DNA from: an uncultured Candidatus Saccharimonadales bacterium
GTDB lineage: Bacteria; Patescibacteriota; Saccharimonadia; UBA4664
Direction of reading: 5' to 3'
Length of the DNA: 33,294 nucleotides
Assembly (NCBI GenBank): GCA_964405545.1
Contig: CAYOOH010000001.1
Span: 1 to 33,294, forward strand
Positions 378 through 7,450 of this stretch are shown in pieces; positions within the stretch are counted from its first letter, which is position 1, and every line of letters starts with the position of its first letter. The position numbers and the translations under genes were made by a program. The notes under the pieces were generated by a model. It did not search any database and had not been told where the DNA came from. It saw only the letters and a list, made by a program, of their open reading frames with translations.

Positions 378-662
378 ATGACAGAGCCACAAATTATGAA
401 GAAGGGTGTGCGAGCCATAACCAACGGGCATGTTATCCAGCTCGGCCCGCTGGAGCGGGAAAAAGATCTTGAGCATGAGCTGATCCATGTAGAGCAAGCG
501 GAACGGGAGCCCTTTATTCACCCACTGCTGTACCTTGTAGAATCTCGCAAGCACGGATACCGTCAAAACAAATACGAGGACGAGGCCTACACAAGGGCGA
601 GTAACGAATATAAGAGCACCAAGCCTACTAAAGCCTTTATTCCGCCTGTTCGCGAAGAATAG
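378..662 (+). CDS. small stand-alone DUF4157-like HExxH (putative Zn-metallopeptidase-like) protein, 94 aa
   Basis: GGAAGGA SD about 8 nt upstream of the ATG. The motif RAITNGHVIQLGP...EHELIHVEQ matches the DUF4157 signature (AfTxGxxIxfg ... HELxHVxQ). The 3' end overlaps the convergent STAS-like gene by 26 nt. Confidence 0.6.
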   Translation: MTEPQIMKKGVRAITNGHVIQLGPLEREKDLEHELIHVEQAEREPFIHPLLYLVESRKHGYRQNKYEDEAYTRASNEYKSTKPTKAFIPPVREE

Positions 663-903
663 CTATCGTGGCTTTTACCGACGGGTTGTCGCTTGGCATA
701 TAAGTAACCCGATCGCCATAGATCTCTTCTAGCGCCCTAAAGAATTCATCGGCCCAAGAGGGCGCAAGCGAAATAACGCCACTGAAATCGATTTCTATAT
801 GGGTTTCAGTAGGGCTTAGGGTTGGGCGTATTGCCGCAAAGGCTTCCCTGCCGGCTGGGCGGGAGGTAAGAACGTCTCCGAATTTTTTTAATTCGATTAT
901 CAT
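637..903 (-). CDS. STAS-like DUF4325 domain protein (anti-sigma-antagonist fold), 88 aa
   Basis: The whole length fits the DUF4325 pattern: LTSRPAGREAF...HIEIDFSGVISLAPSWADEFFRAL. The start lies 2 nt after the stop of the upstream GHKL gene, so the two look operonic. Confidence 0.8.
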   Translation of the reverse strand: MIIELKKFGDVLTSRPAGREAFAAIRPTLSPTETHIEIDFSGVISLAPSWADEFFRALEEIYGDRVTYMPSDNPSVKATIAILREQAE

Positions 904-905
904 AA

Positions 906-1637
906 TTAATACTCAATCCTAGCTAATGTACCGCGAATGAAATGGTCTGCGAGCCTTACCTTTAGTTCTTTGGGACCTTCTTTTTCAATTGTGGCGATTG
1001 CTACCCCTGATTGCAAAGCAATCCCTATTGGATTCTGCATTGCTACCGTTCGCACAAACTTTAGGCCGTTTCCTCTTTGCTCAGGAGTTCTGCCTGATAC
1101 AAACTCTGTCATAGCGATGGTTAGTGCCTCGATGTCGTCTTTCATTTCCGGACGCACTCTTAGTAATGTGGTCTTGATCCCCACCCCTCGATCAGCCAGG
1201 ACAACGATGCGCTTATTTAAATCATAACTGAAGAATAGGCCTGGTGTGTCGGGCCAATTCCCTAAGTTATGATCAAATGAATTGTTGCCAATTTCTCCCG
1301 CCACGGCTGTGACTAGTGAGGCCGCCTCAAAGTTCTGAGGACTTTGGTTTATCAAGCTAGCCATTCGGTCCAGTCTAGCCCTAAATCTATCCTGTGTATC
1401 GGAGTAATCCGTAGAAGGGAGGTCAGGCGCTACTTCACTCGCCGCCCATACTTGTGCCAGTCTAAAAAGCTCGGTGTTATAACGTTCGAGCGCATCCCTG
1501 TGATAGTACCGATGTCCACCAGGGCTTTTTAGCGCGGGTAATTTTCCCGACTCGTCCCACCGACGCAAGGTCATTACTGTGACGCCTAGATACTTTGCGG
1601 CTTCACTTATTGGCACTAAGTTGTTGTGTCTGGGCAT
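906..1637 (-). CDS. MerR/excisionase-type HTH fused to an RsbW/SpoIIAB-like GHKL (HATPase_c) ATPase/kinase domain, 243 aa
   Basis: N-terminal HTH: VPISEAAKYLGVTVMTLRRWDESGKLPALKSPGGHRYY. N-box GEIGNNSFDHN, G1 DRGVGI, G2 GNGLKF. Start moved to the ATG at 1637 (MPRHNN...), because the track ORF start at 1685 adds an implausible hydrophobic leader. Confidence 0.8.
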   Translation of the reverse strand: MPRHNNLVPISEAAKYLGVTVMTLRRWDESGKLPALKSPGGHRYYHRDALERYNTELFRLAQVWAASEVAPDLPSTDYSDTQDRFRARLDRMASLINQSPQNFEAASLVTAVAGEIGNNSFDHNLGNWPDTPGLFFSYDLNKRIVVLADRGVGIKTTLLRVRPEMKDDIEALTIAMTEFVSGRTPEQRGNGLKFVRTVAMQNPIGIALQSGVAIATIEKEGPKELKVRLADHFIRGTLARIEY

Positions 1638-1718
1638 GTATAGATTTTGCATCAAAACTATACAAAATGTCAAATATCTATACATTTTTGGGTTTTGAGG
1701 CTGCTTTTGTATAGTTTT
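1638..1718. promoter_or_regulatory. cluster of four AAAA(C/T)CTATAC sites, including a perfect 14-bp inverted repeat; candidate operator array for the MerR-HTH protein
   Basis: AAAACTATACAAAA lies at 1654-1667 (+) and its exact reverse complement at 1705-1718. Related copies sit at 1638-1648 (complement, abutting the start codon) and 1673-1688 (+). A TTGACA on the minus strand lies at 1668-1673. Confidence 0.5.
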
Positions 1719-1754
1719 AAGCGCGGAATTGGTCCATGATCGTAGTGATAAGAT

Positions 1755-1784
1755 GGTTCTAACTTCCGATACGATCCGGAGCCA
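1755..1784 (+). repeat. intergenic motif copy A (GGTTCTAACTT-CCGATACGAT-CCGGAGCCA)
   Basis: 1755-1773 is identical (19/19) to 5014-5032. 1756-1784 matches 2689-2717 at 22/29 positions with no gaps. It contains a small TCCG...CGGA hairpin. Confidence 0.8.
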
Positions 1785-1798
1785 AGGACTTATGCTTA

Positions 1799-1827
1799 AC
1801 GAGGCTTGTTGAGGCCTCGTTTTTGTT
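1799..1827 (+). terminator. rho-independent terminator-like hairpin with no + strand gene upstream
   Basis: ACGAGGC-ttgttgag-GCCTCGT, a 7-bp stem, followed by TTTTGTT. It lies directly after motif copy A. Confidence 0.55.
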
Positions 1828-1842
1828 ACACTCTAGGAATGG

Positions 1843-2034
1843 ATGGTTCTCAGAATAAATAGCCAGGGGTTGGCGGTACAAGAAACAACGAGTTTAGGGT
1901 GGCAAAAAACGTATGCAGAACTTTCGGTTGACGCTGAGCAAGCGACTGAAGGGCCGACTAAAATCGACAAGGGCGGCATCCGCGCGCATGCCCGGAGTAG
2001 AATTGAAACCACTATTACAACATTTCGGATATAA
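1843..2034 (+). CDS. possible small ORF (63 aa) immediately upstream of the HEPN gene
   Basis: AGGA lies 4 nt upstream of the ATG. The stop is 8 nt before the HEPN ATG, which has no SD of its own, so translational coupling is possible. No motif was found, and a 92-aa antisense ORF is also open here. Confidence 0.3.
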   Translation: MVLRINSQGLAVQETTSLGWQKTYAELSVDAEQATEGPTKIDKGGIRAHARSRIETTITTFRI

Positions 2035-2041
2035 TTAGAAT

Positions 2042-2668
2042 ATGACAGGTAGTCAAAGTAAAGACTTAACCAACTACATAGAAAGTGTACGCGAGTGGTA
2101 CCACACGGCACTTACGAGCTTTACTTTATACCAAGGATTAATGATCAAGAAGGCTCCTAATCAAGTCGGCGTGGAAGCGGCACGAAAAAACGTAGGTACT
2201 TGGAATGAGTACAATGGTGTTTTCACGGTTGCACTCAACACAGCAAGGTACTCATCAATCATGAGCCTAGCTGTTTTGTTTATAGACGGGAAAGATAAAG
2301 AAGGAAATCCTTCTATGTCTCTTGCTAATTTACTCGAAGAGGTAGCCGAAAATTATACAGTAGATGGAGTAGAGCTTGAGACCATACGAGAAAAGTTGAG
2401 TAGTAATGAGACAATTGATACCCTAAAGATTCTTCGCAATCAGTACTTGGCACACGCAGATAAGAACCCTGACGAAATCCAGATCAGTGACTCCATGTTC
2501 GAAGGTCTCCTTGCCCTAACGAAACATATTGTGGCTTTCGCAGAGAGGTACATACTTCATTACGATATAGACGATGCCCAGTATAGGCACAATACGACGT
2601 CAGGCAGTAATGTTCAAAATGATGTTTCATTTAGTCTAGATAAACTATTTACCAGACTGCAATCCTGA
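2042..2668 (+). CDS. HEPN-domain protein, AbiU2-like (abortive-infection-type putative RNase), 208 aa
   Basis: C-terminal Rx4-6H HEPN motif in LKILRNQYLAHADKN. The protein is all-helical and of AbiU2-like size. GC is visibly lower than in the flanking genes. Confidence 0.6.
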   Translation: MTGSQSKDLTNYIESVREWYHTALTSFTLYQGLMIKKAPNQVGVEAARKNVGTWNEYNGVFTVALNTARYSSIMSLAVLFIDGKDKEGNPSMSLANLLEEVAENYTVDGVELETIREKLSSNETIDTLKILRNQYLAHADKNPDEIQISDSMFEGLLALTKHIVAFAERYILHYDIDDAQYRHNTTSGSNVQNDVSFSLDKLFTRLQS

Positions 2669-4986: not shown

Positions 4987-5010
4987 GCGGGGTGCGAGAT
5001 GCGGGGTGCG
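4987..5010 (+). repeat. G-rich direct repeat (GCGGGGTGCG x2) / potential G-quadruplex tract
   Basis: GCGGGGTGCG occurs at 4987-4996 and 5001-5010. Together with flanking Gs this gives GGG-C-GGGG-N10-GGGG-TGC-GGG (4985-5012). Confidence 0.5.
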
Positions 5011-5013
5011 GGC

Positions 5014-5032
5014 GGTTCTAACTTCCGATACG
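5014..5032 (+). repeat. intergenic motif copy C (GGTTCTAACTTCCGATACG)
   Basis: Perfect 19-nt direct repeat of 1755-1773, starting 35 nt after the permease stop. Confidence 0.8.
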
Positions 5033-5183
5033 GGACTAAGCTAGGAATTGATCTGCTAAAGCCTTTGGGTGGCCAGCCGCGATGAGATTTTCGCCAGTGG
5101 CGGGATGACCAGATGGTTATTTCTGAAATATACTGGATTAATTTTATTTTTGTGGTATTATTGCCCTGAATTACCGAACTCCT

Positions 5184-5597
5184 TTGAGAAAGGAAATTCT
5201 GGTAGCAGAGATCATCTTCCCTTACCGCCCAAATTCTGACCGGGTTAGTGTGGGCGGGCAGCTTTGCTTGGTGCGGCGGGGACGGTTTGCTATGCACCAT
5301 GAGTTCAGGGTTACGCCCGTTATTTACGCCGGCCGAACCGCGCTGGAATGGCAAGTGAGCTTCATGGTGGAGATACTGACCCTTCCAGATGGAAGGACCG
5401 GTAAAGGTCTGGGTCGGTCTCGTATTACCTTGGCGACTATCAAAGCGGTGGTAGAGGTTTTCATCAACCTGGAACTCTATTTGACGCACGGGAGCCCTGT
5501 TGACCTGATCTTCAATCGACCCGATGAGCCGGACCTTCTGGCTCTGGGTAACCCCGATAATGGTTTGGCGGTGGCATTCCGCGACCACCAGCGGTAG
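5184..5597 (+). CDS. hypothetical protein (137 aa from TTG 5184; 101 aa if it starts at ATG 5292)
   Basis: The frame is open with G-rich first codon positions (RNY-like periodicity). An extended -10 (TGgTATTAT, 5153-5161) lies upstream. No family was recognised and the start is uncertain. The aligned antisense frame is also open but would overlap the permease gene by 0.7 kb. Confidence 0.45.
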   Translation: MRKEILVAEIIFPYRPNSDRVSVGGQLCLVRRGRFAMHHEFRVTPVIYAGRTALEWQVSFMVEILTLPDGRTGKGLGRSRITLATIKAVVEVFINLELYLTHGSPVDLIFNRPDEPDLLALGNPDNGLAVAFRDHQR

Positions 5598-5647
5598 TGA
5601 TGTGCTTTTGCGTACGCCTCAACGGTCACCGTTGGAGCAGCCGGTAC

Positions 5648-5716
5648 GATAACCCGGCGCAGTAACTAGATGTATAGCTAGTCTGATGAGTCTAAAAAGA
5701 CGAAACTGCAGGGATC
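5648..5716 (+). ncRNA. type III hammerhead self-cleaving ribozyme (predicted cleavage between A5664 and A5665)
   Basis: GCAGUA|ACUAG-AUGUAUAG-CUAGU-CUGAUGA-GUC-UAAAAA-GAC-GAAA-CUGC. All core residues are present: C3-A9 at 5683-5689, G12-A14 at 5702-5704, the A15.1-U16.1 pair and the GUA cleavage triplet. Stem I has 5 bp closed by an 8-nt loop. Stem II has 3 bp starting with G10.1-C11.1 and a 6-nt loop. Stem III is open, with 5 bp, and can be extended by CCC/GGG and GAU/AUC pairs. Confidence 0.85.
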
Positions 5717-5799
5717 ACGGAGACCAGACTTACGTCATATCGGATCCTGGAGCCCAAGATAATGCCCAAGCATAGTAGCCAGGGCAGCTCGGCTGGAGG

Positions 5800-6621
5800 C
5801 TAAATGTGTCGGCGATGAACTGAGCCGAATAGTCGAGCTGCGATATAAATAGCAAAGCTAATGGAGGTAACAAGAACGCTGGGCTTGATCGTGCCAAAGG
5901 CGAGGCTGGAGACCAGGCCACCGACGCTTGCGGTGAGGGCAAAGAGAATGGACAGGCCAAGCACCGCCAGGGGTTTGGCCGACAAACGCACGGCGGCTGC
6001 GGCCGGGGTGATTGCTAGGCTCAGGACTAAGAGCGTACCCACGACCTGGGCGACGGCGGTAACGGTAAGCGCCAGAATGAATAGGAATATAATGCCGATG
6101 GCCCTAACATTCACGCCCCGAGCCTCTGCCACATCGGGATCGGTGGATGCGAACAGGAGGGGCCGGTAGATGATGGCCATTGCGACCATCACGCCGGCCG
6201 CAATGATAATGAGGATAACTAGCTGACCAGTCGAGACGCCAAAGATGTTGCCAAAGAGGATGTTGGTGGCCTGGGTAGCAAAGCCGTGGTAAAAGCTCAG
6301 AAGGAGCACGCCGATACCGAGGCCAAAGGCCAAGATGACGCCAATAGACGAGTCGCGTTCGTGCTCGCGGACACCGAGCGTGCCAATGATGCCGGCGACG
6401 ATGAGGGCTCCAACCAGGGCGCCGGCAATGGGGTTGCCGTTGATGAGTAGGCCGGCGGCGGCGCCGGTGAAGGCTAGTTCGCTGGTGCCATGAACGGCAA
6501 AGGACATGCCCCGCGTTATTACAAAGGGACCGATAATGCCGGCAATGATAGCAACAAGGGTAGCGGCGAGAAGGGCGTGCAGAGCAAAAGGCTGGGTAAG
6601 ATAGAAGCCGAGTTCAGTCAT
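5800..6621 (-). CDS. znuB: metal (Zn/Mn) ABC importer permease, ABC-3/ZnuB family
   Basis: Polytopic membrane protein with typical ABC-3 sequence (FALHALLAATLVAI..., TSELAFTGAAAG). Start moved to the ATG at 6621, giving an ATGACTGA overlap with the upstream ATPase stop. Confidence 0.85.
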   Translation of the reverse strand: MTELGFYLTQPFALHALLAATLVAIIAGIIGPFVITRGMSFAVHGTSELAFTGAAAGLLINGNPIAGALVGALIVAGIIGTLGVREHERDSSIGVILAFGLGIGVLLLSFYHGFATQATNILFGNIFGVSTGQLVILIIIAAGVMVAMAIIYRPLLFASTDPDVAEARGVNVRAIGIIFLFILALTVTAVAQVVGTLLVLSLAITPAAAAVRLSAKPLAVLGLSILFALTASVGGLVSSLAFGTIKPSVLVTSISFAIYIAARLFGSVHRRHI

Positions 6622-7450
6622 GTCTACTCTCGCGGGAATTATGGACATGGTGTCCGCCAGCCTCGGCCATGTTATCACCGGAACCCACCACGATCACGCG
6701 GCCATGAACGTTCAATACTTCGATGGGTGTGCCGTATAGTTGGCTAAGCCGTTCGGAGGTGAGGACCTCGCTGGGCTTACCCATGGCGAACTTGCCGCCG
6801 ACGAGGTAGAGTATGCGATCGACCATGGGCAGCACTGGGTTGATCTCGTGAGTGATGAACATAACGGCCATGTTGCTCGCACGGCGCTGCTTGTCGATGA
6901 GGTCGCTGACGGCCTGCTGATGCGAGAGGTCGAGCGAGAGTAGCGGCTCATCGCAGAGCAATACCCGAGGCTCCCCCACCAGGGCCTGGGCAATTCGTAG
7001 ACGTTGCTGTTCGCCACCGGAGAGTTGGCCAATGGGGGCGTCGGCATACGCCTCGGCACCTACGGCCCGGATGGCTCGTTCAACACGCTTGGCGGTGGCG
7101 CGAGCCTCGAAGGCGATGCCCAGCTGATGGCCGTCGAGGCCAAGGTGTACGAGATCACGGCCGCGCAAAGGTAGGTCCGGGTCAAAGCTTTGACGCTGGG
7201 GAACATAGCCAATGTGGTTTGAGCCCCGCTTGGGTGGTTGGCCCGCTACTTCTACGAGGCCGCTCGTGAGCGGAATAATACCCAATAGAACCCGCAACAG
7301 GCTGGTCTTGCCCGAGCCGTTCGGGCCAAGGACGGCGATAAACTCACCGGGTTGGACTTCGAGATTGAGGCCACTCCAGAGATGCCTCCCGCCGAGGCTC
7401 AGCTCGGCGGACTGGAGGCGAAGGGCAGGTGAGGTTTGAGCTTGTGTCAT
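6614..7450 (-). CDS. znuC: metal ABC importer ATP-binding protein, ZnuC-like
   Basis: Walker A GPNGSGKTS, signature LSGGEQQRLRIAQAL, Walker B LLCDEPLLSLD, H-loop ITHE. Confidence 0.9.
   Translation of the reverse strand: MTQAQTSPALRLQSAELSLGGRHLWSGLNLEVQPGEFIAVLGPNGSGKTSLLRVLLGIIPLTSGLVEVAGQPPKRGSNHIGYVPQRQSFDPDLPLRGRDLVHLGLDGHQLGIAFEARATAKRVERAIRAVGAEAYADAPIGQLSGGEQQRLRIAQALVGEPRVLLCDEPLLSLDLSHQQAVSDLIDKQRRASNMAVMFITHEINPVLPMVDRILYLVGGKFAMGKPSEVLTSERLSQLYGTPIEVLNVHGRVIVVGSGDNMAEAGGHHVHNSRESRHD

Follow-up and report, generated by a model that had tools for sequence, protein, structure and literature searches.

Type I and type III hammerhead ribozymes in intergenic regions of bacteria and phages were described in 2010-2011 and often lie beside small non-conserved open reading frames (ORFs) (PMC3088659, PMC6155905). 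These hammerheads are persistently phage-linked, and their biological role has been called an open question (PMC6155905). A role in transcript processing was proposed for hammerheads that are clustered in phages (PMC3088659). Changes in the loop sequences can strongly lower hammerhead rates (PMC6155905). The cut made by another self-cleaving RNA, the glmS ribozyme, leaves a 5'-OH product that is degraded by RNase J1 (PMC3328962). The Rfam family Hammerhead_3 (RF00008) includes the hammerheads of viroids, satellite RNAs and plant retrozymes. No report of hammerheads in the Saccharimonadia (CPR) was found in the literature consulted.

The DNA analysed here (the window) is a stretch of 33,294 nt, a complete public contig, from an uncultured Candidatus Saccharimonadales bacterium. 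Positions 5657-5711 of its + strand read GCGCAGUA^ACUAG[AUGUAUAG]CUAGU-CUGAUGA-GUCU[AAAA]AGAC-GAA-ACUGCAG, and the original prediction had interpreted this sequence as a complete canonical type III hammerhead cut at 5664/5665, with every invariant core position, a GUA triplet, stems I and II capped and stem III open. All of these points are borne out. The invariant nucleotides C3 U4 G5 A6 N7 G8 A9 and G12 A13 A14 are complete in the sequence as written, the cleavage triplet GUA (G5662 U5663 A5664) is of the N-U-H type, and both core pairs can form (U5663-A5705 for A15.1-U16.1 and G5690-C5701 for 10.1-11.1). The three-way junction appears in the MFE and centroid folds of 55-nt, 69-nt and 211-nt stretches, and in these folds as well as in a full-length Infernal alignment helices I and II are closed by loops while helix III is open, which is the type III topology. 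A second, independent assembly (Logan L002, run SRR9179560) has an entire spacer identical to that of the window. Because core, topology, covariance models and conservation at sibling loci agree, 5659-5709 is read as encoding a genuine type III hammerhead for which self-cleavage is predicted. One detail of the original prediction needs correction, as stem II consists of 4 bp closed by an AAAA loop rather than of 3 bp with a 6-nt loop. The coordinates are collected in Table 1.

Table 1. Features of the hammerhead-containing unit in the window
Feature	Position	Strand	Details and evidence
Leader segment (GGTTCTAACTTCCGATACG...AGGAATT)	5014-5050	+	Homologous to post-hammerhead sequence of siblings (alignment A8)
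AT-rich promoter-like block	5105-5163	+	Consensus match; GC 0.35 over 5100-5199; aligns with TTGTAT...TATAAT in L185/L186
Small ORF	5184-5597	+	At most 137 codons; stop at 5597; protein end ...AV[AI]FRDH
Shine-Dalgarno-like AGAAAGGA	5187-5194	+	Alignment with siblings
CGTACG motif	5611-5616	+	Conserved, before hairpin 1 (alignments A5, A7)
Hairpin 1	5616-5638	+	Core stem CAACGG 5620-5625 / CCGUUG 5629-5634
Hairpin 2	5640-5658	+	GCCGG/CCGGC, loop UACGAUAAC; directly abuts helix III
Type III hammerhead ribozyme	5659-5709	+	Core, fold, covariance models, sibling conservation
Helix III	5659-5663 (GCAGU) / 5705-5709 (ACUGC)	+	5 bp, open
H17 and predicted scissile bond	A5664; A5664/A5665	+	
Helix I	5665-5669 (ACUAG) / 5678-5682 (CUAGU)	+	5 bp, capped
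Loop 1 (AUGUAUAG)	5670-5677	+	
Core (CUGAUGA + GAA)	5683-5689 + 5702-5704	+	
Helix II	5690-5693 (GUCU) / 5698-5701 (AGAC)	+	4 bp, capped
Loop 2 (AAAA)	5694-5697	+	
Post-ribozyme sequence	5710-5765	+	Partly homologous (...GATCCTGGAGCC...) to sibling leaders; reaches znuB 3' end

The window ribozyme shares its core, pairs, NUH triplet, topology and size (~51 nt) with the hammerheads of RF00008. It differs from them in its loops, which depart from the Rfam consensus, and in its setting, as it is a single copy in bacterial DNA within the 3' UTR of a protein gene and not part of a circular RNA replicon or a tandem retrozyme. The original prediction placed the ribozyme about 50 nt past an ORF without an intrinsic terminator. 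The downstream position stands, and the distance is ~60 nt counted from the stop at 5597. The lack of a terminator also stands, since the + strand, including the sequence after the ribozyme, yielded no terminator-like site.

The small ORF has no match in Pfam, PHROG, PADLOC or NCBIfam, and a word-indexed protein search returned only its own gene call. The resulting view of the ORF as an orphan did not survive an exhaustive comparison by phmmer with 1.84 billion representatives, in which P0004 (127 aa) and P0005 (125 aa) emerged as true homologues with 48% and 42% identity, respectively. Three further long matches (P0006-P0008) were discarded as repeat-protein artefacts of summed scores. A profile search of 5.8 billion proteins gave a family of four members only (the window ORF, P0004, P0005 and P0009), which are 37-67% identical to one another. 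Public gene calls begin the window ORF at ATG 5292 (101 aa). The alignments with P0004 and P0005 begin at residue 9-11 of the 137-aa reading, the Shine-Dalgarno-like sequence is conserved in the siblings, and a start at ATG 5292 would remove the best-modelled N-terminal strands. At the exact position of the sibling ATG the window has GTA (5202-5204), and the only in-frame starts left near the Shine-Dalgarno-like sequence are CTG 5199 and TTG 5184. Codon usage in the ORF is host-like, the frame is still open and the conserved residues are retained.

A protein model from the single sequence was unusable (pLDDT 46), and a 4-sequence AlphaFold (AF2) model reached pLDDT 69 and pTM 0.67 and consists mostly of beta strands plus one helix. 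Searches with the 4-sequence model returned no significant match; the top entries had E = 0.2 in PDB and E = 0.03 in BFVD, the latter an uncharacterised phage protein. The weak matches of this model to OB-fold and SSB proteins are a lead rather than evidence.

The homologues of the small ORF lie on three contigs, of which L185 and L186 come from two Logan runs and L187 comes from a JGI metagenome. All three contigs bear near-identical type III hammerheads, five copies altogether. L185 and L186 represent one locus with the order gene A (P0009, 129 aa), hammerhead, gene B (P0004), hammerhead and other small genes. The two hammerheads of this locus have the same sense and their cleavage sites are 683 nt apart; genes A and B are 38% identical, and the helix III strands of the neighbouring copies are identical. 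On L187 the order is an IS30-like transposase gene, P0005, hammerhead and a NUDIX gene. The hammerhead lies 58-60 nt past the gene stop in 4/4 units. The order of the unit, as given by alignments A5, A7 and A8, is leader, AT-rich promoter-like block, AGAAAGGA, gene, CGUACG, hairpin 1, hairpin 2, hammerhead and leader. Two units, that of L187 included, have a terminator-like hairpin after the ribozyme. The promoter-like match in the window is weak, and chance alone would produce one of this kind.

Conservation within the four units is highest in the hammerhead, which has a mean pairwise identity of 0.93 (92-93%), followed by hairpin 2 (0.86) and hairpin 1 (0.54); the flanks are 32-44% identical, with segment means of 0.39-0.44. 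Overall, 96.4% of cells are paired in the four-unit alignment vs 28-44% in slid controls. The two accessory hairpins covary, with compensatory changes at four pairs of hairpin 1 across the four units and one compensatory change in hairpin 2, where pair 5643:5655 is G-C in the window and A-U in the siblings. Part of the motif that precedes hairpin 1, GUACG, comes back in the hairpin 2 loop (5644-5648). The original prediction extended stem III through CCC/GGG and GAU/AUC pairs to 5648/5716. This extension is unsupported because its bases (5654-5658) form part of the conserved hairpin 2, which shows compensatory change in the siblings. The helices of the ribozyme itself are invariant within this gene-linked subfamily. 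The high identity, judged from four units only, might in part stem from gene conversion or recent spread. From its position and its conservation, the ribozyme is the conserved 3' component of a rare unit that is built around the small gene.

The search for covarying homologues, which the original prediction had proposed, led to covariation of the ribozyme itself in a wider family. A 24-mer made up of core, helix II and loop 2 has exact matches in two IMG/VR contigs, both of which bear further type III hammerheads. A looser pattern, CTGATGAGNNNAAAANNNCGAAAC, matches more than 120 viral contigs, which is a lower bound. Among 131 listed matches of this pattern, 118 are type III hammerheads and ~10 are type I. 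Helix II is complementary in 127/130 listed matches although it was left free in the search pattern, and an 18-nt stem-loop I is present in 112/118 type III copies among the matches listed. In 90 distinct phage copies, 97.9% of cells are paired vs 32-43% with slid partners, and compensatory changes occur at 12/15 pairs. The same 90 copies, with the window left out, were used to train a covariance model (R1). Phage members score 40-80 bits on R1, and many contigs carry 4-6 copies per 10 kb. Phage hammerheads of this family are intercistronic, with a median of 31 nt from the stop codon to the start of the ribozyme and 26 nt from its end to the next ORF. A GC-rich hairpin is set against the 5' strand of helix III in 88/100 phage copies vs 19-32/100 in three controls, and the 45 nt upstream of the phage copies fold with a mean of -14.4 kcal/mol vs -7.3 for shuffles.

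The window copy scores 55.2 bits on R1 (E = 1.2e-15), and the second-best R1 match in the window is 8.5 bits, which leaves a single ribozyme in 33 kb. CTGATGA...CGAAA occurs once in the window vs 0.1 expected. Together with the phage alignments, the R1 score indicates that the window ribozyme belongs to a large, strongly covarying phage-borne type III family. Members of this family have a 6-bp helix I with loop UGWGUR, a 4-bp helix II and an A-rich tetraloop. The window copy shares the 18-nt stem-loop I, its helix II and loop are identical to those of the L039 and L040 copies, and its hairpin at 5640-5658, which ends one base ahead of helix III, abuts this helix as in the phage copies. The differences lie in stem-loop I and in the arrangement of genes. 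Helix I of the window copy has 5 bp with loop AUGUAUAG, and the siblings have AUGYAYAAG. The original prediction suggested that loops 1 and 2 could supply the tertiary contact of fast-cleaving hammerheads, a contact that supports fast cleavage at physiological Mg2+; the window copy has both of these loops. In relation to the phage consensus, the window loop keeps U15, G16, U17 and U19; pair 14:21, which is kept in all of ~150 phage copies, is replaced by A.G in the window and siblings, and G18 is replaced by A18 in the window. All six copies of the gene-linked subfamily have helix I ACUAG/CUAGU and loop 1 AUGYAYA(A)G, and the departures at G18 and pair 14:21 are common to the siblings. The idea that loop 1 (A14.G21, A18) had decayed privately in the window was therefore dropped in favour of a subfamily trait. 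Phage copies lie between two same-strand ORFs and usually occur several together, whereas the window has a single copy and no downstream ORF on the + strand.

The window variant of loop 1 is absent from the viral type III copies scanned; one viral match to it proved to be a type I hammerhead and a coincidental match. The exact gene-linked subfamily was not found in IMG/VR, blastn of the window ribozyme against GenBank phages gave no match, and these sequences are not in the supplements of Perreault et al. that were consulted. A recurrent protein of 310-370 aa is encoded upstream of many phage copies, and other upstream genes vary. This protein was considered as a capsid and rejected; PHROG, Pfam and PDB gave no name for it. 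The GenBank phage MW202828 has a homologue of it and no ribozyme in the 17 kb examined.

The likeness to the intergenic hammerheads of prokaryotes and phages (de la Pena & Garcia-Robles 2010; PMC3088659; PMC6155905) lies in the canonical motif and in the adjacent small non-conserved ORF. The phage relatives flank single genes and are proposed transcript processors. The window copy differs from the described examples in its link with one very rare protein family and with two conserved hairpins, and in that no phage, prophage or integrase genes were found around it or elsewhere in the window with Pfam, PHROGs, PADLOC or NCBIfam.

The score on the Rfam model needs separate consideration. At gathering thresholds, Rfam gave no match anywhere in the window. 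With permissive filters, RF00008 aligned over model positions 1-54 of 54 with 41.6 bits and E = 4.5e-8 for a 241-nt stretch, which is ~6e-6 when scaled to the whole window. The original prediction had proposed this Infernal scan and had named a score under the gathering threshold as grounds for rejection. The full-length match was obtained, and the score is below the gathering score of 48.5. This shortfall is uninformative and reflects a property of the Rfam model, because the covarying phage family (34-42 bits in the copies of the same build that were tested, including those of the two contigs with the exact 24-mer) and all five siblings (41.3-46.8 bits) also fall below the threshold. A deliberately loose, hand-written type III descriptor occurred 1 time per 1000 dinucleotide shuffles of the window, which, like the E-value on RF00008, speaks for more than chance. 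At that rate some false positives would still arise in a very large scan, and this point and the score below the gathering threshold are what could be said for a chance match to the hammerhead consensus without biological meaning. This reading is given next to no credence and is effectively refuted by the R1 score, which comes from an independent family model, and by the five near-identical copies behind homologous genes on three other contigs, where the accessory hairpins are also conserved.

The strand of the unit is given by its surroundings in the siblings. In the window, the ribozyme faces a convergent znuACB operon, as originally described and as confirmed with Pfam. The znuB gene (5800-6678, minus strand) is 88 nt from the ribozyme and has no recognisable terminator of its own, and the reverse complement also folds well (-17.2 kcal/mol, z = -2.4). 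From these features one might suppose that the minus strand is the functional one and serves znuB as a terminator or 3' UTR element, and that the hammerhead reading is incidental. The reverse complement lacks a U tract, however, nothing similar lies downstream of the znuB relatives in Saccharimonadia, and the sibling module follows the small gene on the strand of that gene with no znu genes nearby. The minus-strand reading is thus already contradicted by the sibling loci, and its probability is negligible.

We regard as likely the reading in which the + strand hammerhead, with self-cleavage predicted, forms the conserved 3' terminus of a rare expression unit. According to this proposal, the unit would be transcribed from its own promoter (5105-5163), and the emerging ribozyme would fold and cut between A5664 and A5665. 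Hairpin 2 may also help the short, open helix III to form by stacking on it. The coding RNA would be left with two hairpins and a 2',3'-cyclic phosphate at its 3' end, and such a hairpin-capped end is expected to withstand 3' exonucleases and tailing. The downstream RNA would begin with a 5'-OH; in tandem arrays it would consist of the next unit or a terminator, and in the window it would be antisense to znuB. Detached from the gene in this way, the downstream RNA may, like the glmS product, be open to RNase J-type decay. The analogy with glmS concerns only the way of working, as a self-cleaving RNA inside a bacterial mRNA and a model for the fate of the RNA past 5665. The glmS ribozyme has another fold, depends on a ligand, is located in a 5' UTR and has no homology to the window ribozyme.

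Cleavage of the mRNA to give a hairpin-capped end with a 2',3'-cyclic phosphate is thus the most likely function suggested by the conserved layout of the unit. Such processing of mRNA would agree with the role suggested for clustered phage hammerheads (PMC3088659). The original prediction had offered two roles, one in which the ribozyme makes the 3' end of the ORF transcript and limits antisense RNA and one in which it belongs to a mobile or processed RNA. Both appear to fit the data, because the ribozyme is tied to the 3' end of the gene in 4/4 units and because tandem repeats and an IS30-like transposase neighbour occur among the siblings.

It is also conceivable, and in our estimate rather unlikely, that the window holds a solo decaying unit in which an intact ribozyme is the remnant of a tandem or mobile array, cleaves weakly or is unexpressed, and performs no service for the host. 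The leader homologue at 5014-5050 has no ribozyme upstream of it, GTA stands in place of the sibling ATG, and the terminator that follows the ribozyme on L187 is missing in the window. Within the ribozyme, H17 is A vs C in all five siblings, and loop 1 is one nucleotide shorter. None of the FtsX and ZnuB relatives examined has the unit. Because of these differences from the siblings in H17, loop 1, upstream ribozyme, terminator and ATG, the window copy may be losing function. The arguments for an active unit are that all core nucleotides and all helix pairs of the ribozyme and hairpins are intact amid flanks of low identity, that GUA is an allowed triplet that is found in 19/90 phage copies, and that the open 137-codon frame has conserved residues and host-like codon usage and could start at the in-frame CTG 5199 or TTG 5184.

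The comparison with relatives of the neighbouring genes covered those of ZnuB from GTDB genomes and those of FtsX from metagenomes, and no ribozyme and no similar spacer were found in either set. The closest ZnuB relatives are Candidatus Saccharimonadia MAGs with 66-75% identity and Fur-znuACB synteny. The relatives have in common with the window only the Fur-znuACB or the ABC-FtsX blocks. In relation to the FtsX and ZnuB relatives examined, the gene-ribozyme unit seems to be private to the window genome.

Retrozymes and viroid-like circular RNAs also use type III hammerheads, and the two same-sense copies that bracket the 683-nt unit in the L185/L186 locus resemble their arrangement. The sibling units differ from retrozymes and viroid-like RNAs in that they are protein-coding, have promoter-like blocks of their own and are non-identical paralogues. 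The window has one copy and so lacks the pair of same-sense hammerheads that brackets a retrozyme unit. The arrangement in the siblings raises the question of an element that forms RNA circles or is mobilised as RNA, in which the two mutually compatible hammerheads would free the RNA of the 683-nt unit from read-through transcripts, with 5'-OH and 2',3'-cyclic-phosphate ends, and these ends would rebuild a ribozyme across the junction and ligate. The system would then be a bacterial, DNA-encoded counterpart of retrozymes, with protein-coding circular RNAs made from tandem units and with the window as a solo unit. Both the element and this retrozyme parallel are considered improbable. If the proposal were correct, the mutual compatibility required of the ribozymes would explain why their helices are invariant while the proteins are only 38% identical.

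The tandem order gene A, hammerhead, gene B, hammerhead, together with its spacing, the identical helix III strands and the invariance of the ribozyme helices amid diverged surroundings, is in keeping with such RNA circles, as is the IS30-like transposase that adjoins the unit on L187. Circular products were considered possible by Perreault et al., who detected no circular or spliced products (PMC3088659). A promoter-like block seems to be present in each unit between the upstream ribozyme and the gene, and a terminator-like hairpin stands behind the ribozyme in some units; these suggest monocistronic transcripts with a single ribozyme. The extent of divergence between the neighbouring genes also means that they are not identical repeats, no reverse transcriptase came to light, and only one ribozyme is present in the window.

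The window ribozyme thus adds to an already known kind of element and is not a new kind, and it adds little to the hammerhead catalogue as such. What is modestly new is how strictly it is coupled to a single, very rare protein family, along with the pair of conserved accessory hairpins, the probable CPR host and the observation that the Rfam threshold misses this lineage together with an abundant phage family. The strict 4/4 coupling to a gene and the covarying hairpins offer a clean handle on the role of bacterial and phage hammerheads, and they make testable the hypothesis of mRNA 3' ends that are made by a ribozyme, capped by hairpins and terminated by a cyclic phosphate. For annotation, the window lineage and the phage family (more than 100 copies), with scores of 34-47 bits, are overlooked at the RF00008 threshold and would be recovered by a dedicated covariance model.

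The contig that bears the unit is an ordinary bacterial chromosome, with genes for a MacB-type ABC transporter, ZnuACB, Zur, ZIP, ApbE, an MFS protein, a histidine kinase, LexA, VanW and others. An Obelisk-like or viroid-like RNA as the source of the sequence was ruled out on this ground, as the contig is ordinary bacterial DNA. The sole exception to its ordinary character is a low-GC island at 637-2668, which is 2.5 kb away and unrelated.

Of 100 type III hammerheads in the IMG/VR viral contigs (L039-L159), 88 have a GC-rich hairpin adjoining the helix III 5' strand, versus 19-32 of 100 in controls, and the abutting hairpin and the phage ribozyme together look like a composite module. In many independent phage copies, U10.1/U11.1 sits beside the core (CUGAUGA-UU..AU-GAAAC), position N7 varies, or the cleavage triplet is AUA, combined with GAAAU; these core-adjacent variants are expected to be rejected by classical filters. 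Type I hammerheads whose helix II and A-rich loop are the same also turn up in viral contigs. One of them, in viral contig L184, matches the window's loop-1 string only by coincidence.

Many phage hammerheads lie immediately 3' of the gene for a recurrent protein of ~300-330 aa whose members share 41-64% identity. This protein has no match in Pfam, PHROG or PDB, and a homologue is contained within a 574-aa hypothetical protein of the GenBank phage MW202828.

The 3' module of the window unit contains two copies of the pentamer GUACG, one before hairpin 1 and the other within the hairpin 2 loop. The copies occupy the same alignment columns in the sibling units, and both are kept in three of the four units (window, L185-L187). 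The pentamer could be a binding site.

Terminator-like hairpins are found ~50 nt 3' of the hammerhead in two units (that of L185/L186 was read by eye in alignment A8 of the window with its siblings), where hammerhead cleavage would trim away the terminator hairpin and U tail. Both sibling loci have a NUDIX-family gene 3' of their gene-ribozyme units, and the surroundings of the window unit contain none.

In public gene calls, the small ORF of the window unit starts at ATG 5292 (101 aa). The alignment of its homologues begins at residue 9-11 of the 137-aa frame, and the window has GTA (5202-5204) at the position of their conserved ATG. Further upstream, GCGGGGTGCG occurs twice in tandem immediately 3' of the FtsX stop codon; in the alignment, this repeat occupies the site of an upstream hammerhead in the sibling units.

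GC skew on the + strand is very strong across the window (1-33294; mean +0.24), reaches 0.3-0.4 across about 11-31 kb and does not depend on gene orientation. The closest relatives (contigs L003, +0.13, and L161, +0.19) also show this skew, though less strongly. A low-GC3 island (GC3 0.41-0.47 versus 0.6-0.73 elsewhere) includes an excisionase-type HTH protein that also has a C-terminal domain without assignment; the island possibly serves defence or is mobile.

Features in the window, sibling units and viral contigs
Feature	Location	Strand	Remark
GUACG copies	window 5612-5616, 5644-5648
Tandem repeat	window 4987-5010
Low-GC3 island	window 637-2668
88-aa ORF	window 637-903	minus	in island
Excisionase-type HTH protein	window 906-1685	minus	PADLOC mad1 HTH 7e-14, TIGR01764
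HEPN_AbiU2	window 2042-2668		weak match, 25.5 bits vs cut-off 26.8
NUDIX-family genes	L187:2050-2349; L185:1351-1704		3.4e-15; 0.003 (weak)
Terminator-like hairpins	L187:2003-2024; L185 about 205-240 / L186 about 605-640
Recurrent protein genes	L039:778-1707; L042:12325-13305; L084:2437-3348		and about 25 others
Core-adjacent variants (examples)	L070:8488-8543; L113:7640-7695; L053:1822-1877
Type I hammerheads, viral	L184:66-125; L076, L077, L102, L118, L131, L133
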